Positions 3,261 through 26,258 of a DNA stretch of 64,000 nucleotides are shown in pieces. The number at the start of each line of letters is the position of its first letter. The first letter of the stretch is position 1. A program made the translations under genes and the position numbers. Below the pieces are notes generated by a model that was not told the origin of the DNA, searched no databases, and saw only the letters and a list, made by a program, of their open reading frames with translations. Source of the DNA: an uncultured Candidatus Saccharibacteria bacterium (lineage in GTDB: Bacteria; Patescibacteriota; Doudnabacteria; UBA920); the NCBI GenBank assembly GCA_964532425.1, contig CAZHIA010000006.1, positions 1,343-65,342 on the forward strand, in the 5' to 3' direction.

Positions 3261-3280
3261 AAGATTACGCTTTATCATAT

Positions 3281-3808
3281 ATGAGATCCCGTTGGAAACC
3301 CGCCCAAAAAACTAAGGAACCTGATAACGTAGAGAAGGCATATGATTATGCCGTGTTTTTGTTGTCGCTGCGATTAAGGACTATTGGCGAAGTGCTTTCG
3401 AAAATGCAGAAGCGTGGGTATACCGAATCGGTCATTGGGCAGGTAATAGAGCGCCTGAAGGACCAGCGATATCTGGATGACCGGAGGTATGCGGAAATTT
3501 TCTTGGAGAATCTGAAAGCGTACAAGAATTTCGGATATTATGGTATCAAAAAAAAATTCATGGAGAAGAAGCTTCCGCCTGCTTTAATCGAGACGGTACT
3601 GGAAGAAGGTCTGTCGTTTGAAGACGAAAGAAAAATTGCCGAACGTCTGTTGCGACGCGAAGGATACGCTGCTCCCAAGTCCGTGGATGATTCGGAAATA
3701 CACTACCGGACCTTTGACGAGAATGCCGGAAAGGAAAAACAAAAATTGGCCCAGCGGCTAAAAGCACGGGGCTTCCGGGGCGAGGTTATAAGCAGGTTAA
3801 TTTTTTAG
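3281..3808 (+). CDS. recX: RecX-like regulatory protein
   Basis: 175 aa, helical repeats, motif YLDDRRYAEIF typical of RecX. Assignment from motif resemblance only. Confidence 0.5.
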   Translation: MRSRWKPAQKTKEPDNVEKAYDYAVFLLSLRLRTIGEVLSKMQKRGYTESVIGQVIERLKDQRYLDDRRYAEIFLENLKAYKNFGYYGIKKKFMEKKLPPALIETVLEEGLSFEDERKIAERLLRREGYAAPKSVDDSEIHYRTFDENAGKEKQKLAQRLKARGFRGEVISRLIF

Positions 3809-3824
3809 TATACGATCGAAATGG

Positions 3825-3854
3825 AAGCCGCCCGCAGATTGCGAGCGGCTTTTC
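3825..3854. terminator. Hairpin plus T-tract between convergent recX and phosphatase genes
   Basis: AAGCCGC-CCGCAGATTGCGA-GCGGCTTTTC. Confidence 0.4.
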
Positions 3855-3859
3855 GTGAG

Positions 3860-4567
3860 CTACAAGTAAAGAATCTCGTTGTACCGAATCAGCTTCATTT
3901 GACCGAGTGACCGGTCAAACCGGTATTCGGCCACGGAACAATTGGCCGGATTGTTCGAACCCATGCAGTCGAGCATCTGCCGTTCGCCCCAGTTCTCGAG
4001 CTCGGCCAGAATGCTGATGCGCGAACCCCAATGGTCGATGGCTAGGACCTTTTTGTTACTCCAGTTAGTTCGGAGTTTTTGCAACCATTTCGCACATCGC
4101 TTGCGGACATCGAGCAAATTTTCTTTTCCTCTCGGGGCGATAAGGACTTCTCCCAGAATGGCGTACCCAGTCTCGAATTCGGGGTAGAGTAGTCCCACCT
4201 CATGGTCCAGCAGCAGGGGGAGCATGCCCCAATCGCGCTCGTCCAATAATTCCGTGGTGAGTACCGGAATCTTGCGACGCTGGTCTTCCGGGTACGTAGA
4301 GAGAATTACCTCGAGCGTCTTTCGGTTTCTGAGGCAGGTCGATTGATAAGCGCAGTCGAACGTCCCGTACTCGGTCCTGATCTTTTCCCCGGTTTTTTTG
4401 GCCTGCAGCCAGCCTTCATCGCAGAGAGGTATGTCGCGATCAGCCATGCCAGACAGCGGTGCGCGCTTTTTTTCATCCGAAAAGAATAAACCTTCCTTAT
4501 AGAGCTGGATCAGGGATTTTCCGTGGCGTACCAGTACCAAAAGCTCCGGCCAGCCTGTAGCGGTCAT
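3860..4567 (-). CDS. Histidine phosphatase superfamily protein (phosphoglycerate mutase-like)
   Basis: N-terminal LVLVRHGKS (RHG catalytic motif). Start chosen at internal ATG 4567 preceded by AGGAGG RBS; ORF track start 4585. Confidence 0.65.
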   Translation of the reverse strand: MTATGWPELLVLVRHGKSLIQLYKEGLFFSDEKKRAPLSGMADRDIPLCDEGWLQAKKTGEKIRTEYGTFDCAYQSTCLRNRKTLEVILSTYPEDQRRKIPVLTTELLDERDWGMLPLLLDHEVGLLYPEFETGYAILGEVLIAPRGKENLLDVRKRCAKWLQKLRTNWSNKKVLAIDHWGSRISILAELENWGERQMLDCMGSNNPANCSVAEYRFDRSLGQMKLIRYNEILYL

Positions 4568-4628
4568 ATATCCTCCTGTTCCCATGACCAGACCGCGGAG
4601 GAGACGAAGTCTTACAAAAAAACGGCTG

Positions 4629-4958
4629 TTACGCCGCTTTTTTCAAGGTATCTGTATTCTCTTGCTCATCGTTCAAAGGTGGAACTTCCGCCGGAGGCAT
4701 GGTTTTGAGTTTTCCAGGTATCTGCATGCCAAGTTTTTGGCGGTACACATCAGCCATTTTTTTGAGCGTTCCCAATTCACGGTCCACTTTTGCCAGTTCT
4801 TTCAAACTGTCGGGTGTGGCAGACTCGAGGAGATCCTTTCGCACGGTTTCGTAGTATTGGATATCTTTCAAGGTATCCTCGAGTTTGATTTTCGGATGGA
4901 TTTCCAGACCGGTTCCATACTCCGGCCTGCCGAATGCGGCAGGATTGGTTTCGTCCAT
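4629..4958 (-). CDS. Hypothetical protein
   Basis: 109-aa ORF filling gap between flanking minus-strand genes; no recognised motif. Confidence 0.35.
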   Translation of the reverse strand: MDETNPAAFGRPEYGTGLEIHPKIKLEDTLKDIQYYETVRKDLLESATPDSLKELAKVDRELGTLKKMADVYRQKLGMQIPGKLKTMPPAEVPPLNDEQENTDTLKKAA

Positions 4959-4968
4959 AATATTATTT

Positions 4969-5547
4969 TTATGAATTCAAGCGATTCTCCGACCAGAGAG
5001 CCAGCCAGATAATTGCGATCATGACTAGGAATCCGATGAACAGCATGAGTGCGAACCGCTGGCCGGAAAATTCTTTATATTTTTCCTGGGATGGATCTTG
5101 CGGTGCGGCCTCTGAAAATCGCGAGTTGAGTTTGCGGATGTTCGCGATGAACACTTCTTCATTCCTTACTGTAAAAGGGATCTCCAAAAGCTCGCCGTTC
5201 TTTTCGAGTACAATGACCCGTTCACCGTTTTGCAGCACCGTGTGGTGGTAGCCGGTCAGTTCCCGGGCATCAACTTCCCAGGAATGCGACTGTTGCTTAA
5301 AGCGCAAGCGGGTATCTTCCAGTACGAGGGTGGGGAGGGCGCCGCTGACGACCACTCTGGCCATGCGTACCAACAATGCCAGCACCGGCAGGGAGAGGAG
5401 CTTGGCCCACAAAAAGCGCGGATCCGTGATAGCCACGACAAAAAGCAAGGGCACGCCAATAACCGCAAAACCGGTAAACATGAGCTCTATAGCTCGGGGG
5501 ATAACGTTGAGTTTAAATTTTATGGTTTCTGTTTGAGCTGCCATCAT
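4969..5547 (-). CDS. Hypothetical membrane protein (two TM helices plus soluble domain)
   Basis: 192 aa; hydrophobic segments LMFTGFAVIGVPLLFVVAI and FALMLFIGFLVMIAIIWLALW. Confidence 0.45.
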   Translation of the reverse strand: MMAAQTETIKFKLNVIPRAIELMFTGFAVIGVPLLFVVAITDPRFLWAKLLSLPVLALLVRMARVVVSGALPTLVLEDTRLRFKQQSHSWEVDARELTGYHHTVLQNGERVIVLEKNGELLEIPFTVRNEEVFIANIRKLNSRFSEAAPQDPSQEKYKEFSGQRFALMLFIGFLVMIAIIWLALWSENRLNS

Positions 5548-5590
5548 TTGTATGGAGATACGGGTTTAAAACCTGCCCGTGCAATCATGA

Positions 5591-12243: not shown

Positions 12244-13743
12244 ATGAAAAAGTTCGAGTCTTCAACTGAATATCAGCCTGTTATCGGCTTTGAAATCCAT
12301 GTCGAGTTGGCGACTAAGTCTAAGATGTTTTCTCCGGCGCCGAACAATCCGGACGAAAAGACTCCGAACACGAATATCGACGAGATCGTAACAGCCCAGC
12401 CAGGGACACTACCGGTGGCCAACAAGGAAGCTATCCGTTTGTCCGCCATGGTTGGTCTGGCTTTGAATTGTCGAATAGACGAGTGGAGCAAGTTCGATCG
12501 CAAGCACTATTTCTACCCCGACCTGCCCAAAGGCTACCAAATTTCCCAGTATGACCAGCCTATTTCGAAAGAAGGGTTTCTGGATGTGATGATCGCGGGC
12601 AAGGTCAAGAGAATCGGGATTACCCGCGCACATTTGGAAGAAGATGCCGGCAAGAATGTGCATCCGGAAGGATTGCCGTACAGCCTGGTGGATTATAATC
12701 GCGCAGGCTGCGCGCTGCTCGAGATCGTGACCGAGCCTGACATAGAAAGCGGGGAAGAAGCCCGCGTGTTTTTGCAGGAGCTGCGCAATATTATCCGCTA
12801 CGTGGGAGCGTCGAGTGCGGATATGGAAAAAGGCACGATGCGCGTGGAGCCGAACATTTCCGTACGCAAGCCTGGTGAGACAACGCTGCCGAAATACAAA
12901 GTGGAAGTCAAGAACATCAACTCGTTCAAATTTGCCGAGGCTGCCATTAATTATGAAATTGCCAGGCAGACCGAGATTTTAAAGGAAGGCGGTACGCCCA
13001 AGCAGGTCACCATGGGGTGGAATGAACGTGAAAACTGCACGGTAGAGCAGCGCAGCAAGGAAGAAGCCAATGACTACCGTTATTTTCCGGAACCTGACTT
13101 GCCGGTGCTGCAATTCACCAAAGACTATCTGGATGACCTTCGCATGCGCTTGCCCGAGTTGCCTGCGCAAAAGCGCGCACGCTTTAAAGACGAGTATAAC
13201 CTGCCTGACGGTGATACCGAGAACCTGATCAATTGGAAGGAGTTAGCATATTACTTTGAGGATGTAGTTTCCGAATTGAACGAATGGCTCAAGGAAGAGC
13301 CGGGAACCGGACTGGACATTAATCAACTGATCAAACAGGCTGCCAACTGGTGCCTTCAGGATTTTTCTGCGCTGCTCAATGCTCAGGGTTTTAAGCCAGC
13401 TGATAGCCGGGTAACTGCGGAAAATATGGCTGAATTGATCAAGCTCATCCAGCAAGGGAAGATTTCCGGGTCTGCAGCCAAGCAGGTTTTTAAGGTCATG
13501 TTCGAAAAAGGTGGCGAACCGGATAATATCATGCAAGACCTGGGTCTTGAACAGACAAGCGATGAAGGCGCGATTGGCGAAGCAATCGACAAAGTCATTG
13601 CCGCGAACGAAAAAGCTGTTACCGACTTCAGGGCTGGACAGGAAAAATCATTTGGCTTTTTAGTTGGCCAAACAATGAAAGAGCTTAAAGGCAAAGGCAA
13701 TCCGCAGATTATCAATGAAGTGCTGCGTAAAAAGCTTGGTTGA
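12244..13743 (+). CDS. gatB: Asp-tRNA(Asn)/Glu-tRNA(Gln) amidotransferase subunit B
   Basis: 499 aa; N-terminal PVIGFEIHVELATKSKMF and C-terminal GatB/YqeY domain. Confidence 0.9.
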   Translation: MKKFESSTEYQPVIGFEIHVELATKSKMFSPAPNNPDEKTPNTNIDEIVTAQPGTLPVANKEAIRLSAMVGLALNCRIDEWSKFDRKHYFYPDLPKGYQISQYDQPISKEGFLDVMIAGKVKRIGITRAHLEEDAGKNVHPEGLPYSLVDYNRAGCALLEIVTEPDIESGEEARVFLQELRNIIRYVGASSADMEKGTMRVEPNISVRKPGETTLPKYKVEVKNINSFKFAEAAINYEIARQTEILKEGGTPKQVTMGWNERENCTVEQRSKEEANDYRYFPEPDLPVLQFTKDYLDDLRMRLPELPAQKRARFKDEYNLPDGDTENLINWKELAYYFEDVVSELNEWLKEEPGTGLDINQLIKQAANWCLQDFSALLNAQGFKPADSRVTAENMAELIKLIQQGKISGSAAKQVFKVMFEKGGEPDNIMQDLGLEQTSDEGAIGEAIDKVIAANEKAVTDFRAGQEKSFGFLVGQTMKELKGKGNPQIINEVLRKKLG

Positions 13744-13827: not shown

Positions 13828-14061
13828 CTAAGTATGTATCTTATCCGGCGAATGCGGTGCTAATGCCTTCCTTCCGCTGCTGTATAAGGCCAGATCTTGT
13901 CGTAGCCTGCTTAGTCGCATCTTGATTCGCCGTAAGGCCTCCGCCACTTCGGTTGCCTCGCGAGCGGGGTGTTTTTTAAGCATCTGCATTTCCTCAATGA
14001 TCGCCTCGTATTCGGCTATAAAGTAATGCGGGTTCAATCCGCGTTTCCTATGGTTATGCAT
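13828..14061 (-). CDS. Hypothetical small protein
   Basis: ORF-track ORF 13828-14160, 110 aa; alternative internal start at 14061 with overlapping AGGAGG; helical, no motif. Confidence 0.3.
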   Translation of the reverse strand: MHNHRKRGLNPHYFIAEYEAIIEEMQMLKKHPAREATEVAEALRRIKMRLSRLRQDLALYSSGRKALAPHSPDKIHT

Positions 14062-14158
14062 GATCCTCCTGTACGAATGTTGGGATACAGTATACACGAC
14101 GGATGAAACCGTAATGATTAAAGCCGCGCAGGTACGTCTTATGCAAGTAAGGAGACTC

Positions 14159-15334
14159 ATGCCTATGGCAGAAAAGAATACCAGTTTACCAAAGGGTTTT
14201 TTGTTCGGAACTTCCTCTGCCGCCCATCAGGTTGAAGGTGAAAACATTTCGAGTGATTGGTGGCACTATGAAAGGATTGGCCGTCTTCCAAAATCCGGGA
14301 AATGTGCAGATCATTTTCACCGATTCCGTGAAGATTTCTCCCTGGCAGCCGGGTGCGGTATGGATGTCATGCGTATTTCCATTGAATGGAGCAGGATCGA
14401 GCCGGAAGCAGGGAGGTGGGACAGCTCCGCAATAGAACACTACCGGTCCGTCCTGGTTGCTATGAGGGCAATGGGATTGCTGCGCATCGTTACGCTGTTT
14501 CATTTTACTCTGCCACTTTGGTTTTATCGCCAGGGAGGTTTTTCGCGCAAAGCCAACATTGCATACTTTTCGAGATTCGCGAAGTTTATCGCGCATGAAC
14601 TGGGTGATGAGGTGGATATGTGGGTGACCGTGAACGAACCCGAGGTATATGCAGCAGCCGGTTTTCTCCAGGGTAGTCGGCCGCCGTTTGTGCGCAATCC
14701 ATTGCATTTTTGGTCTGTCTATCGCAATTTGCTAGACACGCACCGGGCTGCCTATGCTGCAATCAAAGAGGGTGGCAGTAATACACCGGTTGGGGTGGCT
14801 GTCAGTGCCGCATATTTTACCTCTTCACGGCGTAGTTTATCAGCCATGGCAGCTGCAGCAGGTAGACAGTGGATTTCCGGAATTGCTCGCACCTGCGATT
14901 TTATCGGTTTGAATTATTATTTTGCATATAACCTCGCATTCTCTTTGAGGCGGGGAATTCGGATCGTGAACCGGGATCAACCGTTTTCGGACATGGGATA
15001 CCGGGCCTATCCCGAAGGTCTGCTGCGAGTCCTCAGAGATTTTTCGCGCTTTGGGAAGCCGTTGTATATTACAGAGAATGGTATTGCGAATGCTGCTGAA
15101 GATATGCGCGTGCGGTTCATTGTTGAGCATATAGAAGCTGCTCTGAGCGCGCGTGAACAGGGGGTTGATGTGAGAGGGTACTTGTATTGGTCGCTTACTG
15201 ATACCTACGAATGGCAGCAGGGATTTGATTTAAAATTTGGACTGGTGGAGATCGACTACAGCACCTTGGAGCGTAAACCGCGAGCGAGTTATTATGAATT
15301 GAAAAGATTGATAGGATCGAAGAATATACACTAA
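14159..15334 (+). CDS. Glycoside hydrolase family 1 (beta-glucosidase/beta-galactosidase-like)
   Basis: LPKGFLFGTSSAAHQVEGE N-terminal signature, acid/base TVNEP, nucleophile ITENG. Start at ATG 14159 with AGGAG RBS 5 nt upstream (ORF track 14060). Confidence 0.8.
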   Translation: MPMAEKNTSLPKGFLFGTSSAAHQVEGENISSDWWHYERIGRLPKSGKCADHFHRFREDFSLAAGCGMDVMRISIEWSRIEPEAGRWDSSAIEHYRSVLVAMRAMGLLRIVTLFHFTLPLWFYRQGGFSRKANIAYFSRFAKFIAHELGDEVDMWVTVNEPEVYAAAGFLQGSRPPFVRNPLHFWSVYRNLLDTHRAAYAAIKEGGSNTPVGVAVSAAYFTSSRRSLSAMAAAAGRQWISGIARTCDFIGLNYYFAYNLAFSLRRGIRIVNRDQPFSDMGYRAYPEGLLRVLRDFSRFGKPLYITENGIANAAEDMRVRFIVEHIEAALSAREQGVDVRGYLYWSLTDTYEWQQGFDLKFGLVEIDYSTLERKPRASYYELKRLIGSKNIH

Positions 15335-15338
15335 TACC

Positions 15339-15376
15339 AACGATGATCATTCGCGGGCGCGAATGATCATCGTTTT
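15339..15376 (+). terminator. Intrinsic terminator after GH1 gene
   Basis: Perfect 16-bp stem AACGATGATCATTCGCG-GGC-GCGAATGATCATCGTT followed by TTTG. Confidence 0.7.
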
Positions 15377-15410
15377 GAAGATTAATGGGGGTTTGGTGGT
15401 GTCGAGAAAT

Positions 15411-15451
15411 AAAACACCCGCTCGGCGTCAGTACGAAGAGCGGGTGGTTTT
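15411..15451 (-). terminator. Bidirectional terminator serving minus-strand gene 15468-15857
   Basis: AAAA-CACCCGCTC-loop-GAGCGGGTG-GTTTT. Confidence 0.6.
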
Positions 15452-15467
15452 GTGTAATCCCCAGCGG

Positions 15468-15857
15468 CTAGCGCGATGGTTTTTTTAGGTACATGGTCGG
15501 TTCGGGTGCGTGCTGGACCCAGCGCATGACTTTGCGGCAAAACTCAAAGTGCAGCGGGCACTTGGGGCTTTGCAGCGTTTGCTTGAAGAACGTTTGGTTC
15601 AGTGTCCAATCGTCGATGCCTGAGAGTCTCCGCATCTTGCGCTCGATGGGGCGTTTGGCGTCCTTGTACACTTCGGAAAACAGCACGTAGTGATCGAGGC
15701 CAATGCCTTCGAACATGAGACAGACATGGTCTATGACCAAGTCGCGGGCCGCGCCCTTGTGCTGCTTGAGCAGCGCTTTTCGCGTGTTAATCAGCCGGAG
15801 CTCTTGGTATGCGCTCCGGTACTGCTTGTCTTTCCGCATGCTTGCTTGCTTATCCAT
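15468..15857 (-). CDS. Hypothetical protein
   Basis: 129-aa ORF; basic, no motif recognised. Confidence 0.4.
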   Translation of the reverse strand: MDKQASMRKDKQYRSAYQELRLINTRKALLKQHKGAARDLVIDHVCLMFEGIGLDHYVLFSEVYKDAKRPIERKMRRLSGIDDWTLNQTFFKQTLQSPKCPLHFEFCRKVMRWVQHAPEPTMYLKKPSR

Positions 15858-15877
15858 TATCCAGTGATTCTCCTATT

Positions 15878-16165
15878 TCAGTAGGTGGCTTTCATAGCGC
15901 GCAATCCGCGCGCCGTGCGGACGATTTTTGATAACCGAACCACTTCTCCGAGTTCCGGCCGTTTCTGCTGGTGCCAGACCGGTTTTGTGATGGTGAATGT
16001 GATTTTTTCAGATTCATCCTCAGGCTGGCAGACGGCATACGCGTGTTTATTGGGCTTGCGCGGCTGGACGATTTCCAAGATCACGGCAATTACTGGCGGG
16101 CTGCTTCCTGGTAGCTGTCCCGTGGGGGGGTCCGACATTCTTCCTCCTATTGACTCTGCGGACAA
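15878..16165 (-). CDS. Hypothetical protein
   Basis: 95-aa ORF immediately upstream of and co-directional with 15468-15857. Confidence 0.3.
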   Translation of the reverse strand: MSAESIGGRMSDPPTGQLPGSSPPVIAVILEIVQPRKPNKHAYAVCQPEDESEKITFTITKPVWHQQKRPELGEVVRLSKIVRTARGLRAMKATY

Positions 16166-16272
16166 AGGTGTAGAGTATCACAATTTACTACGGATGTCCA
16201 TTGCTAAAATGTCGGAGCAAAGTAAAAACCGGCCAACCTAAGGTTGGCCGGTTCAATGTCCGACGAGGCGGA

Positions 16273-17052
16273 CTAGCGCTTTACAAACCTGCGGCTACAC
16301 AACGCGGCGCCGGCCAGTCCTAGACCGGTCAACGCCATTGTGGCCGGTTCAGGAACTTCGCCACCCTTCGGCGGCGGCATGATGATCATCGTGGCAGATG
16401 TGGACGGCCCAGCCGTGCTCCAGCCAGAAATGTCGGTGTAAGGACCCCAAGAGTATGCCCCTTTGGCGCGTCCTTGGTCGAAGATCTGGTCAGTGCGAAG
16501 GTTCATCGACATCCACCAGTTGTCGTAGTTACTAAAGCCACTCCGTGTCTGGGTGGTGGTGCCGGATCCCGGACAAGCACCATTCTCGATGCCGGTGCAG
16601 TCCCAGTTCGAGACAGTACTTGCGAGCAATATCTCTAGGGAGTTGCCCTTGCCACCGCTCATGTACAACTCGCCAGTGAGCGGGTAAAAGGTAAATCCGA
16701 AATAGTTGCTCAGGGTGTTTGTGAGTGTGGCCGTCTGATTATAGTTGGTCCCTGCAGCGCCACTGAGCAGATCGGTGTTATTCCAGAACGTCCTGGTGTC
16801 CTGCACCGAACTGCTGAAGCCGCCGCTTACCCACGGATTGCTGGGGTCGCCCGACAGATTACTCCATGTGTCGAGTGTGAGATCAATGTAGTGACCCTGA
16901 CCCTGACTGGTGCAAAGGGCCAATCCGGCGCCGAGAGGCGTGCATGAGCCGGAGCCTGTGCCTTCCGAGAGTAAATTTGTCGTTATCGGGGCTGCGGTCG
17001 CTGAAACGACGACGGCCAGCATGATCAGAATCGCACAGATCGTATTGCGCAT
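16273..17052 (-). CDS. Secreted protein with C-terminal PEP-CTERM sorting signal
   Basis: N-terminal signal peptide MRNTICAILIMLAVVVSATAAP; C-terminus EVPEPATMALTGLGLAGAALCSRRFVKR (PEP motif, hydrophobic helix, basic tail); Gly/Ser/Thr/Asn-rich body. Confidence 0.7.
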   Translation of the reverse strand: MRNTICAILIMLAVVVSATAAPITTNLLSEGTGSGSCTPLGAGLALCTSQGQGHYIDLTLDTWSNLSGDPSNPWVSGGFSSSVQDTRTFWNNTDLLSGAAGTNYNQTATLTNTLSNYFGFTFYPLTGELYMSGGKGNSLEILLASTVSNWDCTGIENGACPGSGTTTQTRSGFSNYDNWWMSMNLRTDQIFDQGRAKGAYSWGPYTDISGWSTAGPSTSATMIIMPPPKGGEVPEPATMALTGLGLAGAALCSRRFVKR

Positions 17053-17100
17053 CTAAAATCCTCCTTGGGGACTGTTTTGATGTGCTGCCTGGTTGTGACG

Positions 17101-17243
17101 TGCTGCAATGAGCTTATAAAAGGCCTCATTGCAGCAGAACGTTTGAGTATGCGTCACCAGGTACGGTGACCGGATAATATAGCATAATTACGCGAAATTG
17201 TCAAGACCTCTACTTTGACAATTACTCGGGAGTTTTATACACT
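17101..17243 (+). promoter_or_regulatory. Divergent control region: three palindromes plus candidate sigma70 promoter of island gene A
   Basis: 12-bp perfect IR TGCTGCAATGAG/CTCATTGCAGCA (17101-17136); palindrome GTCACCAGGTACGGTGAC (17153-17170); AATTGTCAA-N10-TTGACAATT (17196-17223) overlapping -35 TTGACA 17215-17220, 17-nt spacer, -10 TACACT 17238-17243. Confidence 0.45.
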
Positions 17244-17287
17244 AGTACGATTGTTTGTTTTCAAACGAGAAATACAAAGGAGGGGAT

Positions 17288-18169
17288 ATGAACATTCCCG
17301 CAATTATCAAAGCGGTGGAAGCGGATGATTTTTCCTTTATGGAAGGCATCCGTTTAGGAAAGAAGGCTTATACACTCACTGTGGAAGGGCTGAAAAAGTC
17401 AGTGAAGGATGGGACATTCCCCAAAATTCACGGATACGCGGCGCTTGCCCGAGTGACCGTGAGTAATGATGCGCATGTGACCCATCTTGCCCATCATGGA
17501 CTCATCGACAAATCCGGCGAAAAGGGTGTTTGGGTTTTTCTGCCAGCTTTGTTTGTCGGACTCAAAGCCGAGCAATCGGACAATGGGCAGCCTTCGGCAG
17601 GAAATCATTCGCAAGACGCCAAATCCAAACAGATCTTCTACGCGGTTAAGTCCCGCGCAGTCGAAAACATGGTGGTCTTCACCAAGGATTTGCGACAGCA
17701 GGTGGCGGACGAAGTCGGCTGTCGAGCCAGTTACGTGGGGCAGGTCATGCTCGGCGCGGAGGAGCGCGGTTTGGTCAGGCTCCAGGATCGCAAGATGCGC
17801 GGTTTTGGCTACCAGATCGTTTTTCTGGAAGAAGCCCAGCCGCCTGCGGCCGATCCGCGTATCGTGGATACGGATCAGGAAGAGCCTGGAGAAGTTCCGG
17901 TGCCGGAAGATCCCCCGAACAATCAACCTCAACCGGCCCAGGCTGCGGCTTCTGTCGGTGATGCGCCCGCGGATGTTTCCGCGCAATCGATCATCCGACT
18001 GTATGATGACGAGATCGCCGAATGCGACCGGCAGATCGAAGCGGAAACCGCGCGGATGAAACATGCTCTGGAAACCCTGCAGGCCAAGAAGGATGGCCTT
18101 TCGCGGATGCGCGACGAGGTCCGGCATAAGGCCGAGCAGGTCCGCGAGTCCATCGTGAATAAGCAGTAA
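17288..18169 (+). CDS. Hypothetical protein with winged-helix-like segment and C-terminal coiled coil (island gene A)
   Basis: RBS AAGGAGGGG then ATG 17288; segment KDLRQQVADEVGCRASYVGQVMLGAEERGLVRL resembles an HTH; acidic Pro-rich linker; C-terminal heptad-rich tail. Confidence 0.55.
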   Translation: MNIPAIIKAVEADDFSFMEGIRLGKKAYTLTVEGLKKSVKDGTFPKIHGYAALARVTVSNDAHVTHLAHHGLIDKSGEKGVWVFLPALFVGLKAEQSDNGQPSAGNHSQDAKSKQIFYAVKSRAVENMVVFTKDLRQQVADEVGCRASYVGQVMLGAEERGLVRLQDRKMRGFGYQIVFLEEAQPPAADPRIVDTDQEEPGEVPVPEDPPNNQPQPAQAAASVGDAPADVSAQSIIRLYDDEIAECDRQIEAETARMKHALETLQAKKDGLSRMRDEVRHKAEQVRESIVNKQ

Positions 18170-18176
18170 GCCACAA

Positions 18177-18208
18177 GCCCGAAGCTAAAAGCTTCGGGCC
18201 TCTTTTTT
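18177..18208 (+). terminator. Intrinsic terminator after island gene A
   Basis: GCCCGAAGC-TAAAA-GCTTCGGGC followed by CTCTTTTTT. Confidence 0.7.
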
Positions 18209-18212
18209 ACTC

Positions 18213-18241
18213 TTGATAATTAACAGCTTATAGCCTATGAT
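18213..18241 (+). promoter_or_regulatory. Candidate sigma70 promoter of island gene B
   Basis: TTGATA (18213-18218), 17-nt spacer, TATGAT (18236-18241). Confidence 0.5.
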
Positions 18242-18266
18242 AGGAGGAAATCTTCCAGGAGGAATT

Positions 18267-19481
18267 ATGCGAGAATCGCAGGGGAAAGCCGTAGCGAGGG
18301 CGTACTTTTACCAGAGTTTTCTGCCTTCGTGCCTGACCGCTTCGCAGCTGCAACACGGCAATTTTCTCCTGCTCTTGGGAGAACAACCGCGCGAGCTGCC
18401 GTATCTGCAGGAACTGCGCGTGCCGATGAATCAGATCTGGTCGGTGGAAAACCAGCACGCGATATTCTTGAAGCAGCTTCAATTCCGTGAACAGGGGCAT
18501 TTGCCGATCTCTCTCTACTACGGGGACATGGCTGAGTATGTGCAGTACCTTCTCCACGAAAATAAAGAGTTCCTAGTTCTCGGCTTGGATGTTGAAGGCA
18601 GTTTCTTAAACCAGCTTGATCCGGCCATGACTTCGGTCATGCTCTTCTGCTGGAGGGCTCCGCAGTCCGTGGTGGCCACCTATTCCAGCGTGGGTCGTGA
18701 CCGCTTCATGGTTTGGGAAGGGTTGAAATCCCTGGCGCTGTTTCTGGCCATTGCGCCAAAACAGACAGCCGAATTTTTGGCGGTCTTAAGCCTGCGGTAC
18801 GAGCGGGCTGGCTTCACCGAGCCGGTGAGTATGGTCTTAAGAGACTTGTTTTGGATCAGAAGCCACTTGGAGCATACGCTTATGGCTTCCGTCGTGGTTG
18901 GTGCCGTACCGGGCAGCTTTTACCGTGAGTGCGCGCAATTACAGGAGAGTCTGTGGCAAGCGGTGAAGAAACAGCGCCGCTTTCCGCTGTCCATGGGTTT
19001 TCTCCAGGCGTGCGTCAAATCATGGCTGAAAGATAATCGTATCGCATTCGGCAACCACTTTAACAAAAACCGCAGCTTAGGGCTCTCTTGGGATACGCTG
19101 GCCCACGTGGTATACAATGCCGAGCATCCCTGGTCGCAGCTTTGCTACTTTGCCAAGTTCCGTAATGACGGCAATTTGATCTCCTGCAAGGTATGGCTGC
19201 TCCAAGTGCTCGAATTGTTTATGCGTCAGCCGCTTCTCTACATTGCCCGTTCCGGCAAAACCTACGAGCTGGACGGTCGCGTGCGCGACCTCTCGGAGCT
19301 GGCATCAGTAGCCTTGCTGAAAGGCAATAATCGAACCGATCGCAAAGGCGACCGGGAGATATACCGGCTGTTCAAACCGCGCCAGCTGGAAGCACGAACG
19401 TTGGTGCCGCATGTGCGCGGCATCACGCAGACCATTCTTGCTATTCGCAAGAGCAACGGGTATCATGGCAATAGCATGTAG
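18267..19481 (+). CDS. Hypothetical protein (island gene B)
   Basis: About 404 aa from ATG 18267 preceded by CAGGAGGAAT RBS (track ORF starts 18237); no recognised domain. Confidence 0.5.
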   Translation: MRESQGKAVARAYFYQSFLPSCLTASQLQHGNFLLLLGEQPRELPYLQELRVPMNQIWSVENQHAIFLKQLQFREQGHLPISLYYGDMAEYVQYLLHENKEFLVLGLDVEGSFLNQLDPAMTSVMLFCWRAPQSVVATYSSVGRDRFMVWEGLKSLALFLAIAPKQTAEFLAVLSLRYERAGFTEPVSMVLRDLFWIRSHLEHTLMASVVVGAVPGSFYRECAQLQESLWQAVKKQRRFPLSMGFLQACVKSWLKDNRIAFGNHFNKNRSLGLSWDTLAHVVYNAEHPWSQLCYFAKFRNDGNLISCKVWLLQVLELFMRQPLLYIARSGKTYELDGRVRDLSELASVALLKGNNRTDRKGDREIYRLFKPRQLEARTLVPHVRGITQTILAIRKSNGYHGNSM

Positions 19482-19897: not shown

Positions 19898-21100
19898 ATG
19901 ACTGACTTACCCAAAAAACGGTCAGCGGCGCTGGAGGCTTCCCGCCTGCTCAATCAATTGACCGACACCGCAATAAAATTCGCTTGTGAGCAAGGAGCTC
20001 GCAAAAATTCGACCATGGAAATTGGGACTGTGCTGGCTCAGCATCTCAACGAACGGGAGAAAATCCAGGTGCGGCCCCATACGCTTGTCGAATTGCTCGA
20101 AGGCGCAAGGTTCCGGGGAGGGTCAAGTTTCATTATCCCATTTGGGAAAATGCTTGGCTGCCAGGACATTGCTGCCCGGCTGAGCGCGCTCTCGGAGCTG
20201 CTCGGTGACAGAATGGCAGGCGTCGCCACGTTCGGCGAAACGGAGATTGATTTTTTATTCGATCTTCTGGATGAGCGGCAGAAGCTTTCTTCGCAGATGG
20301 ACACCGCGGCGTTTGCCGGGTATTTTCATCCCTACCAACAAACCGTTGTCAACCTGTGCAATTATTCCAGGAGCGCCCTGACAAAGATGGGCGAGCATGG
20401 TTCAGAAGCGCGGCATATACGGAAGGTAATGGAAGAAAAACCATGGGACAAGGGCCAGCAACCGGATGCGCTGAATCAACCGAATGCGGCAGATCCGGAG
20501 TTGGTAGAACTACTGAATGACCTGCAAGGCAAAATGGGCAGGACTCAACTCAGTGCTGCGCTTGGAATCCACCGGGAAACCCTGGTCGCCCGCCTGGAAG
20601 GGAAGCGGGGAACCAAGATTAGCGACGAAGAGCTTATGAGAAAAGTCAAGGCTGTCTCAGCTGGGCTTGAAGGTGGTGAGAGACCGTCGCCGGCAGCAAC
20701 GCCGGTCCCGGTTTTCAGAACCCGCCAGGAAGACGTACAGGCACGAGTCGTTTTGCCTGCGGAAATTTCCGCAGCGAACGACAGTGGTCCCCGGTTCGTC
20801 CTTACCCCGCAAAATTTCCAGGAGCACCAGCGGAATCTGTGCATTGAATTCATCGGGCTTGCCAAGCGCCAGATGGAACTGGCGCGGCGCGCGCTCGACG
20901 AAGTTACCCAGCACCAGGATCCGGCCGTGCGCGCGTACATCCGCAGTCAAATGATGGGCGAGGTGCATGAAATGCATTTTGCCTTAGAACGTTTCAGCGC
21001 CGAACACCCGAACATTCTGCTCGAAACGCTCGAGGCGGAGCGCCAAGGATTCGAGTTGCATCGCAAACAGCAGGAACCAGCAGGAACCAGGAGAAAATAA
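19898..21100 (+). CDS. Hypothetical protein with internal helix-turn-helix (island gene D), translationally coupled to the GHKL gene
   Basis: 400 aa; strong RBS; HTH-like segment MGRTQLSAALGIHRETLVARLEG; stop TAA overlaps next ATG (TAATG); 10-bp tandem duplication CAGGAACCAG at 3' end. Confidence 0.6.
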   Translation: MTDLPKKRSAALEASRLLNQLTDTAIKFACEQGARKNSTMEIGTVLAQHLNEREKIQVRPHTLVELLEGARFRGGSSFIIPFGKMLGCQDIAARLSALSELLGDRMAGVATFGETEIDFLFDLLDERQKLSSQMDTAAFAGYFHPYQQTVVNLCNYSRSALTKMGEHGSEARHIRKVMEEKPWDKGQQPDALNQPNAADPELVELLNDLQGKMGRTQLSAALGIHRETLVARLEGKRGTKISDEELMRKVKAVSAGLEGGERPSPAATPVPVFRTRQEDVQARVVLPAEISAANDSGPRFVLTPQNFQEHQRNLCIEFIGLAKRQMELARRALDEVTQHQDPAVRAYIRSQMMGEVHEMHFALERFSAEHPNILLETLEAERQGFELHRKQQEPAGTRRK

Positions 21101-23151
21101 TGAAAAAGGTATTGAAAGTGATGAAAAGCGCGGCAGAGTACGTGACCATCAAGTGCGGACGCGGTTTTTTGAGCCGTCAGTTCGCTGGCACTACGTATTT
21201 GGCCGCTGCCACGGAATTGATCAAGAATCCCCGCGACTGGGGCGCAACCGCCATTTGGATCTGGGACAATATCCGTCCCAATCTGGTGCGGTTTGCGGAT
21301 AATGGCGTAGGAATGAACCCGGAAAACCAAACCGCGTTCTGCTCACTCAACGTTACCACGGCGACCAAGGTTTGGCAGGCTGGTCTCTACGATACGGGCA
21401 GCAAGAAGTTCCTGTTCGGTTTCTCCGAACGGGTCGATGTGCGCACCGTGTTCCAGGACGATCCGGATTACGTGAGCCAGTTCGCGCTAGTGACGGCGGA
21501 TTACGAAAACCAGGTCATGGGAAGCGCTCCGAATCAGATCCCGGTCACTCGCGTTCTAAAGACGCCGGAGACCTGGCCGTTCGATTTCCCGACCGGTACC
21601 GTCCTCGACTATACGTTGCGGGATCCCAAAAGCCGCGCCATTTTGCGCGGCAAGTCCCTGGCCGAAGCCATGAGCGCCCGATATCCGGATAAGTTCAAGG
21701 ACATTATCCAGATCAACGGCACGTTCATTCCAGGCAAGGGCGAGAACGCTAAGCTGTTCCATGTTGTGGAACAGCATCCGCAACTGGGACAGGTCTCCAT
21801 CGAGATCTACCAGGTTGCCAAAAAGCGGATTCGCGAAGAGATGCTCTTGCTGTCTGCCGGCGAGATTGGCGAAGTTCCGTTCTCGTCGTTCCTTTCCGGG
21901 CTCGGCGAACTGCAAGCTGACATCGATGACGTCTACGGCCTCGCTACCACAGCCGGCGTGATCCAGGTCCCGTATCTGAAGGAGTATATTAACGAGGACC
22001 GCAAGTCGCTCAACCCGCGCTTCATTGATGACAAGCGTACAATGCAGCTGTTGTTTCTGCTCAAGCGCTTTGCTCCGATCATTGAAAGCCGCTTGGGACT
22101 CCATCTCAAGCAGGATGAAGAACAGGCCGGCGGCCACCGCGTGGTCGACGAACTGATCACGCGGTGCAACAAGAAGTACAATCCCAAAGGCGACATTCCG
22201 CGGGATTTCCGCAAGCCTGATGATGTCGTACCTCCTCCTCCCGTCCGAGGCCCTGAAGAGGACGATGTCTTTGGCGGCACGGATGAGGACGAGCGCAAGG
22301 AAGGGGTGAAGATCGGCTGCCAGCGCGAGTATGAGGTTGGTGAACCGATCCAAATCCGTTTAGCGGTCTCCAAGAACCTGACGTTAGATCCGGCTAAGCT
22401 GAAGTGGCAAACGGACCATTCCCTGGCTAAGGATATTCGCAGTACCGACAAGGGGCTGGAAATGGTGGCAGCTCGCGAGGGCTACGCCAGGGTCAGCTTG
22501 GATGTGGTAGGCACGCCGTACAGCGCCAACTGCCACTATGTCGTGGTAGGGAAACGCAAGTTCAAACTGAGCTCGTCGCAGTCGGTTCTCAAAGTCGGCC
22601 AGTTCTTGAACATCATGACCATCAACTCTGACAAGCTGAAAGGCGAAGTTAAGTGGGAGATGGCCAAGGACAGCGTCGGCAAGCTGGAAGCTAATGGCAA
22701 GCGAGCCGTCTACTTTGCGACCCGCTGGGGCAAAGCCACGGTCTGGGCGTATGACAGCCTGAACCCAAAGGGTACCCGGGTGGCATGCGAGATCGACGTC
22801 ATCCGTCCTGATGACGAATATCTGACCATTCGGAATCACCATTTCCGCGTTCGGTTCACCGTGACCGAACAGGGAATGATGTACGAGCGCAAGCCGGTGG
22901 TCATTAAAGGGAGCTCGGCGGGGAAGGTGCATGACATCTTCTTCAATACCAAGCACCCGGCCTATGTGAAGGCCGATCAAACCGGTTCCTTGCAGGAATT
23001 TCTGCTCATGGAATTGGCGATCGAGTATGTCAGGTTCTGCAAGTTCGATCTGGAGCAGATCCATGTCGAAATGGCGAGCTTTGACGTCCCGGAAGCGTTC
23101 AGTGCAATCCAGAAGGAGGCTGATGTAATTTATCTCGAATTGAAAGAGTAA
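21100..23151 (+). CDS. GHKL/Bergerat-fold ATPase (MORC/Hsp90/MutL-like motifs) fused to two Big_2-like Ig domains (island gene E)
   Basis: 683 aa; N-box ELIKNPRDWGAT, G1 box FADNGVGMNPE, G2-like GLYDTGSKKFLFGF; two repeats of about 80 aa each matching the Big_2 pattern, ending ...GKATVWAYDSLNPKGTRVACEIDVI; no signal peptide. Confidence 0.65.
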   Translation: MKKVLKVMKSAAEYVTIKCGRGFLSRQFAGTTYLAAATELIKNPRDWGATAIWIWDNIRPNLVRFADNGVGMNPENQTAFCSLNVTTATKVWQAGLYDTGSKKFLFGFSERVDVRTVFQDDPDYVSQFALVTADYENQVMGSAPNQIPVTRVLKTPETWPFDFPTGTVLDYTLRDPKSRAILRGKSLAEAMSARYPDKFKDIIQINGTFIPGKGENAKLFHVVEQHPQLGQVSIEIYQVAKKRIREEMLLLSAGEIGEVPFSSFLSGLGELQADIDDVYGLATTAGVIQVPYLKEYINEDRKSLNPRFIDDKRTMQLLFLLKRFAPIIESRLGLHLKQDEEQAGGHRVVDELITRCNKKYNPKGDIPRDFRKPDDVVPPPPVRGPEEDDVFGGTDEDERKEGVKIGCQREYEVGEPIQIRLAVSKNLTLDPAKLKWQTDHSLAKDIRSTDKGLEMVAAREGYARVSLDVVGTPYSANCHYVVVGKRKFKLSSSQSVLKVGQFLNIMTINSDKLKGEVKWEMAKDSVGKLEANGKRAVYFATRWGKATVWAYDSLNPKGTRVACEIDVIRPDDEYLTIRNHHFRVRFTVTEQGMMYERKPVVIKGSSAGKVHDIFFNTKHPAYVKADQTGSLQEFLLMELAIEYVRFCKFDLEQIHVEMASFDVPEAFSAIQKEADVIYLELKE

Positions 23152-23322: not shown

Positions 23323-25170
23323 TTATACCTGAGCAGAAGCCTGACGGACCTTCCAACGCTGCTCCGTGAGCACGCGTTTTGATTCGTATGCCCTGCGGAT
23401 ATTGTCGATGGTCAGATCATGCTTGACCATGAGGTTGTACGCGTGCTGGAATTGGCCGGAGGTGAGCTTGATGGTGTTTCTTCTGGCTGACCGTTGATTG
23501 ACATCGTAGATCAGCCAGGTTTTTGTACTGAGTTCCCACCGCTTCTTGATCACCGGCGCCTTTTCGCCTTTGAGGTTCTCGGACTGCGTCGGGTCAGCCA
23601 CCATAGTTCGTAATACGGGAGCGAACGTACCGGCTTCATCCTTCGAACACTTTTTCAGGAGCTGTACCGTTTCGAGCAGCGAGTTGACACTGCTGCTGGC
23701 AATGAACTTGTCATTGCACGTGATGACGTATCCCGCACAGATGATCAGCTCGTAGAGTTCTTGCGCCCGTGCCTCGTCATACGACTCAGGAACGGGCAGG
23801 GGAATTTCGCTGCTTTCGTCCTCCAAATCCGCAAGCGGCGGTTGTGCTGATTGCGGACCGGAAGGCTCGGCAGCAAGAGGTGGCGTGAGCGGTTCCGGTT
23901 CCCGGAAGGTTTCAGATTCTCCGGGTTCCGATTGCGGTGCTGGTTCGGCCGGTTCGTGGGTCGGTTCGGGCTGGGGTTCTGCTTCCAAAATTTCTGGCAG
24001 CATTCCCAAATAGCGTTCCGTTGCCTGCACGACATCCGCCACATGCTCGGTCAATTGAGGTGGCGTGTAGAATAAGCGTTCGATGCTCGCGACGAGCAGT
24101 TCCAGTTCGTTGCCCAGGCGCTGGGGGCGCCAGTCTTCCGAAGCTGCGACAAGTTCGGCAAATTCATACTCATTCGTATCGATGTACTTGCCGGGCAGGA
24201 ACAGGTGAGGCGGCTTTAACACGCCGTTCTTGGCAAATTGCTGGTACCAGTCGAAGGTGCCGATCTGGGTGTGCCAATGCACCATAACCTGCTTCAGAAC
24301 GGTTGCATGCTGGTCGAGATCGTCGCGGATGTCGGTTTGGCTTTGGGTAAACAGCTGCTGAGCGTCTTTCTGCGCTTGCGCGATGGCACCCAAATGCCGC
24401 CGTGCCTCTTCCACTTGCTGTTTGAATCCCGGATCGGGCGGTGCGCCACCCAGTACGCAATACAACTCCTCGAGGAAACAGTTGTCTTTGAGTTTGAGGA
24501 ATTGGATGGCGTCGGCTACGCATTGGTTTTCCATGGTCAACATGGATTCCCAGTTCGCTTTAGCCGCTTCCGCGCGCTCTTTAAGCTCGGTGAGCTGCTG
24601 GCGCAGGGAAACGATCTCGTCGTGGGTAATGGCGATCCACTTGGCACAGTCGGCCCATGGTTTATAGATGACCAGCGCGATGCTGTCGGAATTCTCCAGC
24701 GCCTGCGTGGCGTTGTCATAGGCTACGGTCATGCCAGATGCGACTTGGTCGGTTTTGCAGAGCTTGTCGGCAATGGTGCTGATGCCACTCATGAAGCTGT
24801 ACAGTTTTTCCTTTAGCAAGGAAATTGCTTCCAGCTCATCGCTGTTCGCGATGGCCTGCAGGACCTGCTGAAGATTCAGAATGCCCATGAGCTCGGCTTT
24901 GACTAACTGGCCCGCTTCTCCGCACGTGTCGAGGATACCGTTGCACTGCTGCTCAAAATCATACAGCAGGTCAGTGAGTCCGTGAGTATCCATCGGGCGT
25001 TCGAAAAAGGTTTCTTGCCCGTTCACCCGCATGTATTTAAAGCTTTGTCCGCGGGCCGCTACGCGCTGAAACAACTGGAGCGTGCCGCGATCTAGGCGGC
25101 TGGCATCTACCTGCACATAATCGTACCCCTTCCCGTCGGGCGTGGGATACCTCAGGTAATAATTTTCCAT
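23323..25170 (-). CDS. Large hypothetical protein with acidic Pro/Glu-rich linker (island gene F)
   Basis: 615 aa; strong RBS AGGAGGGGG; low-complexity segment EPQPEPTHEPAEPAPQSEPGESETFREPEPLTPPLAAEP; no recognised domain. Confidence 0.55.
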   Translation of the reverse strand: MENYYLRYPTPDGKGYDYVQVDASRLDRGTLQLFQRVAARGQSFKYMRVNGQETFFERPMDTHGLTDLLYDFEQQCNGILDTCGEAGQLVKAELMGILNLQQVLQAIANSDELEAISLLKEKLYSFMSGISTIADKLCKTDQVASGMTVAYDNATQALENSDSIALVIYKPWADCAKWIAITHDEIVSLRQQLTELKERAEAAKANWESMLTMENQCVADAIQFLKLKDNCFLEELYCVLGGAPPDPGFKQQVEEARRHLGAIAQAQKDAQQLFTQSQTDIRDDLDQHATVLKQVMVHWHTQIGTFDWYQQFAKNGVLKPPHLFLPGKYIDTNEYEFAELVAASEDWRPQRLGNELELLVASIERLFYTPPQLTEHVADVVQATERYLGMLPEILEAEPQPEPTHEPAEPAPQSEPGESETFREPEPLTPPLAAEPSGPQSAQPPLADLEDESSEIPLPVPESYDEARAQELYELIICAGYVITCNDKFIASSSVNSLLETVQLLKKCSKDEAGTFAPVLRTMVADPTQSENLKGEKAPVIKKRWELSTKTWLIYDVNQRSARRNTIKLTSGQFQHAYNLMVKHDLTIDNIRRAYESKRVLTEQRWKVRQASAQV

Positions 25171-25214: not shown

Positions 25215-25269
25215 ATTCCCTAGAGCGGGAATATCAATAGACTATATGAGATTTTTGGCTGTTTGTCAA
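25215..25269 (-). promoter_or_regulatory. Candidate sigma70 promoter plus operator-like palindrome for gene F
   Basis: On minus strand TTGACA (25264-25269), 17-nt spacer, TATAGT (25241-25246); palindrome ATTCCC-TAGAGC-GGGAAT (25215-25232) in the 5' UTR; -35 overlaps miaA stop codon. Confidence 0.5.
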
Positions 25270-26258
25270 CACTCTTTGAGGAAGCGAAGGGCCAGCTTTT
25301 GAGCTTCGATTTTGGAGCCGACCCAGTGGATGTTTTTGTTTCGCTTAAACCAGGTCATCTGACGCTTGGCATAGTGGCAGATGGCGAGGAGGAGCTGGTC
25401 GAACATTTCATCGTACGAAAGTTTTCTTTGCAGATGCAAAGAAACGTATTTATATTCCAAGCCAAAATTTTCCAAACGCTTCCAGGAGATTCCGTGATCG
25501 TGAAGCTGTTTGATTTCTTTGACCATGCCCTGGTCAAGTCGCTCGATCAATCTTTTTTTGATGCGGGCATAGAGTTTGTCCTGGGGCCAGGTGATACCCA
25601 AATAAAGAACATTTGATCCGCCTGAGGCGGAGCTATTAACCTTCGACAGCTGAGGAACAGGTTTGCCGGTAGTGATGACAATTTCGAGAGCGCGGATGAG
25701 ACGGCGCGGGTTGTGCTGGTCGATTTCAGAAGCGCGGACCGGATCAAGCTTTTTCAGCCGATCGAATAATTGCACCGTCGTAAGGGATTCTAATTTTTTT
25801 CTTAATTTCGGATTTGGCGGAACTTCGGGAAGGATCTGTCCCATTGCCACGGCATCGACCCAGTGGCCGGTGCCGCCGCAGAGAATAGGGAGACGGCCAC
25901 GCGCAGTGATATCCTGAATGGCTTTCTCCGCGTCTTCCTTGAACAACGAAGCGGAATATTGCTTTTTGGGACTGACATAATCAATGCAGTAGTGGGGAAT
26001 ATGCTTATACACAAACATTTGACCTTTGACCTGTAACCTTTGACCCTTGCCTTTTTGCGGTATAGATCCTTCACTTCGCTCAGGATGGATGGCCGTCCAA
26101 CGGCCGTCCACTTTGCCGGTGCCGATGTCCATGCCTTTGTAAATTTGCCGGCTGTCGCAGGAAATTATTTCTCCGCAAAGTTTTTTCGCGAGAATAACCG
26201 CAAGTTCGGATTTCCCCGAAGCAGTCGGGCCAACAACGCAAATGAGAGGAATGTTCAT
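25266..26258 (-). CDS. miaA: tRNA dimethylallyltransferase MiaA with internal insertion of about 35 aa encoded by a dispersed repeat
   Basis: P-loop GPTASGKSELAVILA, DSRQIYKGMDIGTGK, IPHYCIDYV; segment QKGKGQRLQVKGQM is the in-frame translation of the repeat at 26016-26051. Confidence 0.85.
   Translation of the reverse strand: MNIPLICVVGPTASGKSELAVILAKKLCGEIISCDSRQIYKGMDIGTGKVDGRWTAIHPERSEGSIPQKGKGQRLQVKGQMFVYKHIPHYCIDYVSPKKQYSASLFKEDAEKAIQDITARGRLPILCGGTGHWVDAVAMGQILPEVPPNPKLRKKLESLTTVQLFDRLKKLDPVRASEIDQHNPRRLIRALEIVITTGKPVPQLSKVNSSASGGSNVLYLGITWPQDKLYARIKKRLIERLDQGMVKEIKQLHDHGISWKRLENFGLEYKYVSLHLQRKLSYDEMFDQLLLAICHYAKRQMTWFKRNKNIHWVGSKIEAQKLALRFLKEC
26016..26051. repeat. TGACATTTGACC-family repeat copy R2 inside the miaA coding sequence, in frame
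   Basis: CATTTGACCTTTGACCTGTAACCTTTGACCCTTGCC; reverse complement translates to GKGQRLQVKGQM within MiaA. Confidence 0.6.

Follow-up and report, generated by a model that had tools for sequence, protein, structure and literature searches.

Proteins with a C-terminal PEP-CTERM sorting signal belong to a system, PEP-CTERM/exosortase (EpsH/XrtA), of bacteria that possess an outer membrane as well as loci for exopolysaccharide (EPS) (PMC1569441), and the question raised by the locus described here is what such a protein is doing in Patescibacteria, for which the absence of an outer membrane has been proposed (PMC12102498). The locus lies in a stretch of 64,000 nucleotides (hereafter the window) of contig CAZHIA010000006.1 (positions 1,343 to 65,342; GenBank assembly GCA_964532425.1), which is recorded under the name of an uncultured Candidatus Saccharibacteria bacterium with a GTDB lineage in the Doudnabacteria. 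The reading that we prefer, and to which we give an even chance, takes the gene for a self-contained cassette of one gene that moves horizontally and sits in an insertion hotspot of genomes of the candidate phyla radiation (CPR); its product would be a surface protein with a tail that serves chiefly to anchor it in the membrane.

A PEP-CTERM tail on an unfamiliar passenger domain

The C-terminus of the 259-residue protein (VPEPATMALTGLGLAGAALCSRRFVKR) is tripartite: VPEP (residues 233-236) is followed by the hydrophobic segment ATMALTGLGLAGAALCS and by the basic stretch RRFVKR, which ends at residue 259. A first-pass annotation, made from the letters of the DNA, had called this tail a PEP-CTERM signal and proposed TIGR02595 as a check; this model scores it at 19.3 bits (cut-off 16), and PF07589 likewise passes with 27.3 bits (gathering threshold 20.7; E = 3.6e-6). 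The match spans residues 233-255 of 259, and the scores lie well above chance expectation for the approximately 50 genes in the window. The remaining NCBIfam matches are PEP-CTERM subfamily models that cover the tail only and stay far under their own cut-offs, and the PEPxxWA-CTERM variant (NF035944) reaches 16.8 bits against a cut-off of 35. We discard the idea that a PEP triplet stands by chance beside an ordinary transmembrane (TM) anchor, since both curated models score above their cut-offs and the homologues described below have kept the motif. A regular-expression scan of all open reading frames (ORFs) in the window found no LPXTG-like motif, and the NCBIfam scan of the protein returned no LPXTG model.

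At the N-terminus, MRNTICAILIMLAVVVSATA followed by AP displays the n, h and c regions of a Sec-type signal peptide together with an A-x-A site. This assignment was made by inspection; it agrees with the signal peptide seen at first pass, and the same layout is present in both homologues. The passenger domain between the two termini consists to 46% of Ser, Thr, Asn and Gly, contains the cysteine pairs Cys37/Cys47 and Cys152/Cys160, and has no match in Pfam, NCBIfam, PHROG or, by profile search, the PDB. AlphaFold2, supplied with an alignment of three sequences, places an all-beta domain between two terminal helices (residues 3-19 and 237-257), with a predicted local distance difference test score of 42, too low for the model to be of use in comparing folds. 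The protein is, on all sequence criteria, a genuine member of the PEP-CTERM class, with a passenger outside any described family. The identical protein is recorded at NCBI and in two independent Logan assemblies (runs SRR11567528 and SRR11567520). The gene had been drawn at 16273-17136; the ORF is real, and the upper end of that span overshoots by 84 nt into the 5' leader, since there is no in-frame start upstream of position 17052.

A variable insertion in a CPR genome

Pfam annotation, applied to 49 ORFs of the window, shows housekeeping genes packed closely together (ClpB, RecX, SecA, GatA, GatB, MiaA, HolB, RRF, RseP, ProRS, MreBCD, PBP2, FolD, NusG, L1, Tmk, ThyX, RF, FtsEX, PyrG), in line with the earlier impression of a reduced, housekeeping-dense genome. 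GatB is 68-79% identical to its counterparts in metagenome-assembled genomes (MAGs) labelled Patescibacteria or Candidatus Doudnabacteria, with the next tier, at about 50%, formed by other CPR phyla; furthermore, an 11-gene synteny block is shared with them, and the order SecA-GatA-GatB-[gap]-MiaA-HolB-BNR-RRF-RseP-ProS is common to about 16 relatives. Because of this identity and the shared synteny block, the host is, as judged from its genes, a bacterium of the Patescibacteria/CPR from the Doudnabacteria-labelled clade. The thought that the tail might hint at a placement in a diderm, EPS-producing phylum has therefore to be given up. The Pfam scans of the 49 ORFs in these 64 kb detected no outer-membrane gene and, in agreement with the first pass, no EPS gene or locus and no exosortase (PF09721).

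The gap in the conserved block is where the gene resides. While gatB and miaA are separated by 0-600 bp in most relatives, they stand 11.5 kb apart in the window, and the lineage-specific insertion between them comprises a glycoside hydrolase family 1 (GH1) glycosidase gene, the PEP-CTERM gene and seven ORFans. The first-pass view of the gene as cargo holds up well in this setting: it is part of an insertion that varies between lineages at a junction that is tight in most of them, and the "ORFan island" to which it was assigned is real, no Pfam, NCBIfam or PHROG family matching any of the seven ORFans (the PEP-CTERM protein is the one island product that was searched in large protein databases). 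Where the junction is not tight (window, L002, L005, L007, L011, L016, L017), it carries 1.6-11.5 kb of unrelated genes, and the cargo of L002, L005, L011, L016 and L017 differs from that of the window: a 701-residue secreted protein and membrane proteins in L016, membrane proteins in L011, two ORFs in L017 that resemble pyrimidine biosynthesis genes by eye only, and a different PEP-CTERM ORF in L005. At the gatB|miaA hotspot we saw neither an integrase nor a tRNA, and no repeats flanking it that were convincing.

The genomes in question are metagenome-assembled, and the GC content of the island (53.6%) is slightly above that of the rest of the window (49.2%), so one might suspect that a diderm fragment was wrongly joined to a CPR contig during assembly or binning. 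We consider this scarcely credible. Both junctions recur in L091, a Logan contig assembled independently from other sequencing data (run SRR11567520; 19.9 kb) that spans miaA, the whole island and gatB, and a third assembly covers the PEP-CTERM gene and its neighbours; on the concordance of three independent assemblies we reject a chimera. In addition, a homologue adjoins a CPR miaA gene in another sample, and the arrangement BipA-P0009-Tag (P0009 is described below) is found in four assemblies. Look-ups with the genes at the window ends matched only Logan contigs of 3.8-4.5 kb.

A three-member family that recurs at the hotspot

A word-indexed search of 5.8 billion clusters returned the window protein itself and tail-only matches. 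Two homologues emerged from an exhaustive phmmer search of 1.84 billion representatives, namely P0004, which is 38% identical (E = 1.6e-38), and P0005, which is 33% identical (E = 3.7e-10); all other matches were confined to the tail, and a search with a profile of the family added no further member. Hence, the family has three members only among approximately 15 billion proteins, and all three are found in CPR-type contexts. The three share one layout, in which a signal peptide is followed by a passenger that is related among them and by a PEP-CTERM tail, at pairwise identities of 28-38%. Cys152 and Cys160 are invariant, Cys37 and Cys47 are common to the window protein and P0004, and Cys/Trp positions are kept across the alignment. 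Invariant positions are more frequent in the tail of these three homologues (10 of 23) than in their passenger (27 of 211; Fisher p = 0.0008).

P0005 is encoded on a 2 kb contig (L085) immediately downstream of miaA, in the orientation found in the window, and this miaA is 59-65% identical to the miaA genes of the window's clade. Since P0005 adjoins a CPR miaA in the same orientation, the family occupies the gatB|miaA hotspot in a second CPR genome as well.

GC-rich single-gene cassettes

PEP-CTERM genes of other descent also reside in CPR-type DNA. In the Doudnabacteria MAG contig L005, an unrelated PEP-CTERM ORF, which lacks a signal peptide, follows directly upon gatB and shares the tail only with the window protein. 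P0009 is found on a 48 kb MAG contig from NCBI (L086/L097; 41% GC), where four PEP-CTERM genes lie within 7 kb (Table 1), all of them equipped with a promoter, a ribosome-binding site and a terminator. That this contig stems from a CPR bacterium is weakly indicated by two matches, that of a cupin to an Uhrbacteria locus (62% identity) and that of a DUF559 to the window.

The PEP-CTERM genes of L005, L084, L085 and L086 form sharply bounded single-gene islets with a GC content of 0.56-0.60 and a GC content at third codon positions (GC3) of 0.68-0.79 among AT-rich genes (GC3 0.2-0.5), and every one of them is furnished with a promoter, a leader, a ribosome-binding site and a terminator. The contrast is smallest in the window, because the DNA of its host already has about 50% GC. 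Such GC-rich islets in AT-rich DNA point to a foreign or mobile origin of the cassettes. Viral-contig scans were negative for the family, for the tail DNA pattern and for the products of the two largest island ORFans (i683 and i615); as no viral contig carries the cassettes, a phage vector is not supported. Of the horizontal import considered at first pass, recurrent cargo is supported and a one-off import is not, given the homologue in a second CPR hotspot and the other CPR-type cassettes. The three homologues differ as widely as stated above, yet none of them has drifted to the composition of its own host. On L097, a second, moderately GC-rich islet (positions 2394-5564; 0.47-0.52 versus about 0.38) holds three unannotated cytoplasmic ORFs, which suggests further imported cargo.

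A scan of the JGI metagenomes for DNA encoding VPEPATYAMMG found four contigs, uniformly with 61-69% GC and non-CPR neighbours, in which the composition of the gene matches its surroundings. In a tail-only profile search, which is biased to fragments of at most 86 residues and gave no CPR seed, the named nearest tails all came from diderm phyla, including Bryobacterales. Two further proteins were tried and rejected as CPR copies, the context of P0059 (on an 834 kb contig) being non-CPR and that of P0011 uniformly high in GC and non-CPR.

These compositional data bear on a rather different explanation, namely that CPR bacteria use PEP-CTERM proteins copied from diderm hosts to engage the exosortase-dependent matrix of the host, be it by mimicry, by docking into its EPS or even through processing by the host's enzyme. 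CPR bacteria are largely episymbionts (PMC11665869), the cassettes keep the composition of the high-GC diderm genomes in which that tail flavour is native, and the affiliation of the nearest named tails fits as well. The explanation is entirely inferential, however: our searches revealed no donor homologue for any of the passengers, and processing by an inner-membrane enzyme of the host is topologically implausible. We regard it as very improbable.

Table 1. Positions of the PEP-CTERM gene, its expression signals, the surrounding insertion and PEP-CTERM genes on other contigs (window numbering unless another contig is named).
Feature	Position	Strand	Basis or remark
Coding sequence, 259-residue PEP-CTERM protein, ATG start	16273..17052	-	ORF list; stop codon 16273-16275; GC3 0.68, neighbours 0.56-0.58
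Signal peptide, residues 1 to ~20/21 (MRNTICAILIMLAVVVSATA before A)	16990..17052	-	sequence inspection
Passenger domain, residues ~22-232	16357..16989	-	predicted all-beta, no known family
PEP-CTERM sorting domain, residues 233-259	16276..16356	-	PF07589, TIGR02595
Promoter-like site TTGACA-17-TATATT with TG extension, sigma-70-type	17176..17204	-	promoter scan; 11/12 matches, consensus match only
Structured 5' leader, ~120 nt	17053..17170	-	RNA fold -37.8 kcal/mol, z = -3.9 versus shuffles
5'-terminal hairpin of leader	17153-17170	-	sequence
Perfect 11-bp hairpin inside leader	17102-17135	-	sequence and RNA fold
Ribosome-binding site AAGGAGGA	17060-17067	-	sequence
Intrinsic terminator of PEP-CTERM gene, 13-bp stem, 8 GC pairs, T-run	16226..16254	-	terminator scan
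Intrinsic terminators of neighbouring genes	15339-15374, 15411-15450, 18165-18211		terminator scan
Lineage-specific insertion, 11.5 kb, between gatB and miaA	13744..25265	.	synteny with 16 relatives
gatB, conserved left flank	12244..13743	+	Pfam GatB_N, GatB_Yqey; 68-79% identity to relatives
miaA, conserved right flank	25266..26258	-	Pfam IPPT; position conserved in relatives
GH1 beta-glycosidase, island edge	14060-15334	+	independent gene call starts 35 codons later (389 residues)
Island ORFans, minus strand	15468-15857, 15878-16165, 23323-25170	-	
Island ORFans, plus strand	17255-18169, 18237-19481, 19898-21100, 21100-23151	+	
PEP-CTERM gene on L005	3854-4501		GC3 0.79, neighbours 0.41
PEP-CTERM gene on L085	1056-1865		GC3 0.785, neighbours 0.34
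PEP-CTERM gene on L084	1697-2512		GC3 0.71, neighbours 0.49
Four PEP-CTERM genes on L086	10001-10771, ~14089-14900, 15153-15899, 16092-16832		GC3 0.68-0.69, neighbours 0.2-0.42

A probable transcription unit of its own

With a promoter, a leader, a ribosome-binding site and a terminator (Table 1), the PEP-CTERM gene looks like an apparently complete transcription unit; no sigma-54-type -24/-12 motif was found upstream of it. The description of its surroundings as a "palindrome-rich divergent region" was overstated: the palindromes exist, and the region consists of ordinary terminators, divergent promoters and a leader hairpin. The leader of the L085 homologue (912-1058, plus strand) is also strongly structured (z = -3.8), whereas the structure of the L084 leader is weaker (z = -1.8). 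In the window and in L085 alike, a hairpin comes directly after the promoter and CCAAGGAGGAT stands at the end of the leader, with the primary sequence otherwise poorly conserved; these leaders could have an mRNA-stabilising or regulatory role.

In L005, a palindromic element of about 36 nt occurs twice in the spacer between gatB and the PEP-CTERM ORF (3093-3850), once as TAGTCAACTACCCCACATATGTGGGGTAGTTGACTA and once in a variant form, alongside several further hairpins and a segment of about 230 nt that is rich in GC and seemingly structured. Rfam yielded no match, at gathering thresholds, in the window, L005, L084 or L085.

The state of the gene speaks to the possibility that it is a non-functional passenger, imported recently, tolerated in the hotspot and now decaying. 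The cargo of the hotspot is heterogeneous, the family is nearly an ORFan, the L005 copy lacks a signal peptide, and a cognate enzyme was not found in the DNA examined. Against decay stand the intact ORF in the window, whose promoter is close to consensus and which also has a ribosome-binding site, a structured leader and a strong terminator, a codon usage that matches the host, the retention of Cys/Trp positions across three homologues and the occurrence of the identical protein in the assemblies of both runs. In our view, decay is improbable.

Side observations on the island and the window

Five large ORFans between 17255 and 25170 (304, 414, 400, 683 and 615 residues) have host-like codon usage and found no match in 80 related loci; for the two largest (683 and 615 residues) no relative was detected on viral contigs. 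The GH1 gene is missing from the loci of all relatives. With 0.49, its GC3 lies below that of the host, while the rest of the island deviates in the opposite direction, which suggests that the island is a mosaic of separate insertions. Outside the island, the thyX ORF (50595-52289, plus strand) encodes 564 residues, about double the usual length, with two Thy1 matches, and may represent a tandem-duplicated or fused flavin-dependent thymidylate synthase.

The search for an exosortase

Exosortases of the EpsH/Xrt type possess at least eight TM segments and the motifs C-x-G, N-x-x-R and H-x-x-x-G (PMC1569441). No unannotated ORF of the window contains five or more hydrophobic or TM segments, and the 31 kb that surround the four CPR-context copies on L086/L097 likewise yielded no exosortase. 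Across 1.5 Mb of loci, 108 polytopic ORFs were screened by this motif signature and by topology, and none of them qualified as a candidate. In the open-access literature searched, we found no paper that links exosortases, archaeosortases or PEP-CTERM proteins to the Patescibacteria/CPR; the few co-mentions are incidental, as judged by title, and one further paper does no more than cite the work on PEP-CTERM proteins in Zoogloea. PEP-CTERM genes usually lie dispersed, at a distance from that of the exosortase (PMC1569441), so that the absence of such an enzyme nearby is to be expected.

This last point favours a second explanation, according to which this CPR lineage possesses a complete PEP-CTERM/exosortase system, an enzyme encoded elsewhere in the genome cleaving at VPEP and transferring the protein, in the manner of a sortase and within an envelope devoid of an outer membrane, to a surface acceptor. 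The canonical motif with its passed cut-offs, the conservation of the tail above background, the four intact copies on one CPR-type contig and the fact that unrelated passengers in CPR contexts carry one tail flavour, VPEP(A/G)TYA(M/L)MG, are all compatible with it. Several findings argue to the contrary, in that no exosortase emerged from any DNA examined and no such link from the literature searched, the GC-rich composition suggests that the tail was conserved by selection in a donor pool and not in these hosts, and the missing signal peptide of the L005 copy is as expected of decaying imports. We hold a complete system to be quite possible, though on balance unlikely.

How the cassette protein might work

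Under the preferred reading, that of a mobile cassette with an anchored surface protein, the following course of events can be envisioned. The gene would be transcribed from its own sigma-70-type promoter through the structured leader to its own terminator, the signals being visible in the sequence and their activity presumed. The protein would be exported via the Sec pathway, and its signal peptide cleaved near Ala20/Ala21. The C-terminal helix would hold it in the cytoplasmic membrane, with the RR..KR residues inside and VPEP at the outer face, if the architecture described in Haft 2006 applies. An all-beta, S/T/N/G-rich and probably disulfide-bonded domain might then be displayed on a cell lacking, as far as is currently known, an outer membrane, and could serve as a strain-specific surface or adhesion factor. 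The weakest point in this scheme is that the tail would be an anchor inherited with the cassette and not the substrate of a resident exosortase.

It should be noted that a number of observations weigh against this scheme. Conservation is significantly higher in the tail, including VPEP, than in the passenger, something that a simple membrane anchor would not require, and the maintenance of four intact, well-signalled PEP-CTERM genes in a streamlined CPR-type genome suggests a working system. The negative results on exosortases cover only the window (64 kb of a 133 kb contig), the 31 kb on L086/L097 and 1.5 Mb of loci. With respect to mobility, the phmmer search found no passenger homologue outside CPR contexts, that is, no donor was seen. 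Finally, synonymous codon usage of the island is within the range of the host and that of the PEP-CTERM gene is indistinguishable from it; hence, the window copy is not marked as foreign by composition alone, and a recent transfer of this copy is not supported.

Significance

What makes the locus worth following up is the combination of an unexpected host with the pattern of GC-rich cassettes. PEP-CTERM genes in Patescibacteria could mean that the reach of the system includes a monoderm-type radiation; in that case, a role like that of a sortase and an enzyme not recognised so far would be implied. Alternatively, they could reflect repeated imports from diderm neighbours. More broadly, we tentatively raise the rather unlikely idea that PEP-CTERM sorting operates outside the diderm/EPS setting, with episymbiotic Patescibacteria devoid of an outer membrane keeping GC-rich cassettes that move into fixed hotspots and whose products are either processed by an unrecognised exosortase-type enzyme or dock into the exosortase-dependent matrix of a diderm host.

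To our knowledge, the hosts of nearly all CPR lineages are unknown. If the docking variant were true, the composition of the cassettes and their tail flavour would indicate which organism is the host; if the import reading were true, compositionally foreign surface-protein cassettes could trace the organisms touched by CPR symbionts. In either case, the gatB|miaA hotspot offers a defined site at which strain-specific surface cargo can be sought in this clade. Should a resident exosortase be encoded elsewhere in the genome, the finding would come down to a known system whose taxonomic range is modestly extended.

Comparison with known systems

We suggest that the window gene is best regarded, on its sequence, as a member of the PEP-CTERM class in an unexpected host, and not as evidence of a new system, because the DNA available from the host shows none of the system-level features (an exosortase, several paralogues, an outer membrane with EPS genes). 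The gene closely resembles the PEP-CTERM genes described in Haft 2006 (PMC1569441) in that its passenger is rich in Ser, Thr and Asn and has almost no homologues, and in that it forms an operon by itself, with a long non-coding stretch upstream. It departs from the PEP-CTERM/exosortase system in the single copy within 64 kb, compared with a genome-wide median of eight (PMC1569441), in the promoter-like site of the sigma-70 type, where Proteobacteria have a sigma-54 site, and in the lack of an exosortase or EPS locus in the DNA examined. Moreover, its host belongs to the Patescibacteria, proposed to lack an outer membrane, and the gene behaves as mobile hotspot cargo.

The system expected for a monoderm-type envelope is LPXTG/sortase. 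The window protein shares with its substrates a signal peptide, a short motif, a TM helix and a basic tail, and display on a single-membrane cell would be common to both; the motif, however, is VPEP and matches the PEP-CTERM models, not those for LPXTG.

A further parallel is provided by Chlorobium tepidum, whose orphan PEP-CTERM proteins without EpsH were read as a remnant after loss of the system (PMC1569441). Few PEP-CTERM copies and no exosortase detected in the DNA examined are features of the present case as well. In contrast to C. tepidum, the lineage studied here probably never had a diderm/EPS context, and its PEP-CTERM genes recur as GC-rich cassettes across related and unrelated CPR-type genomes.

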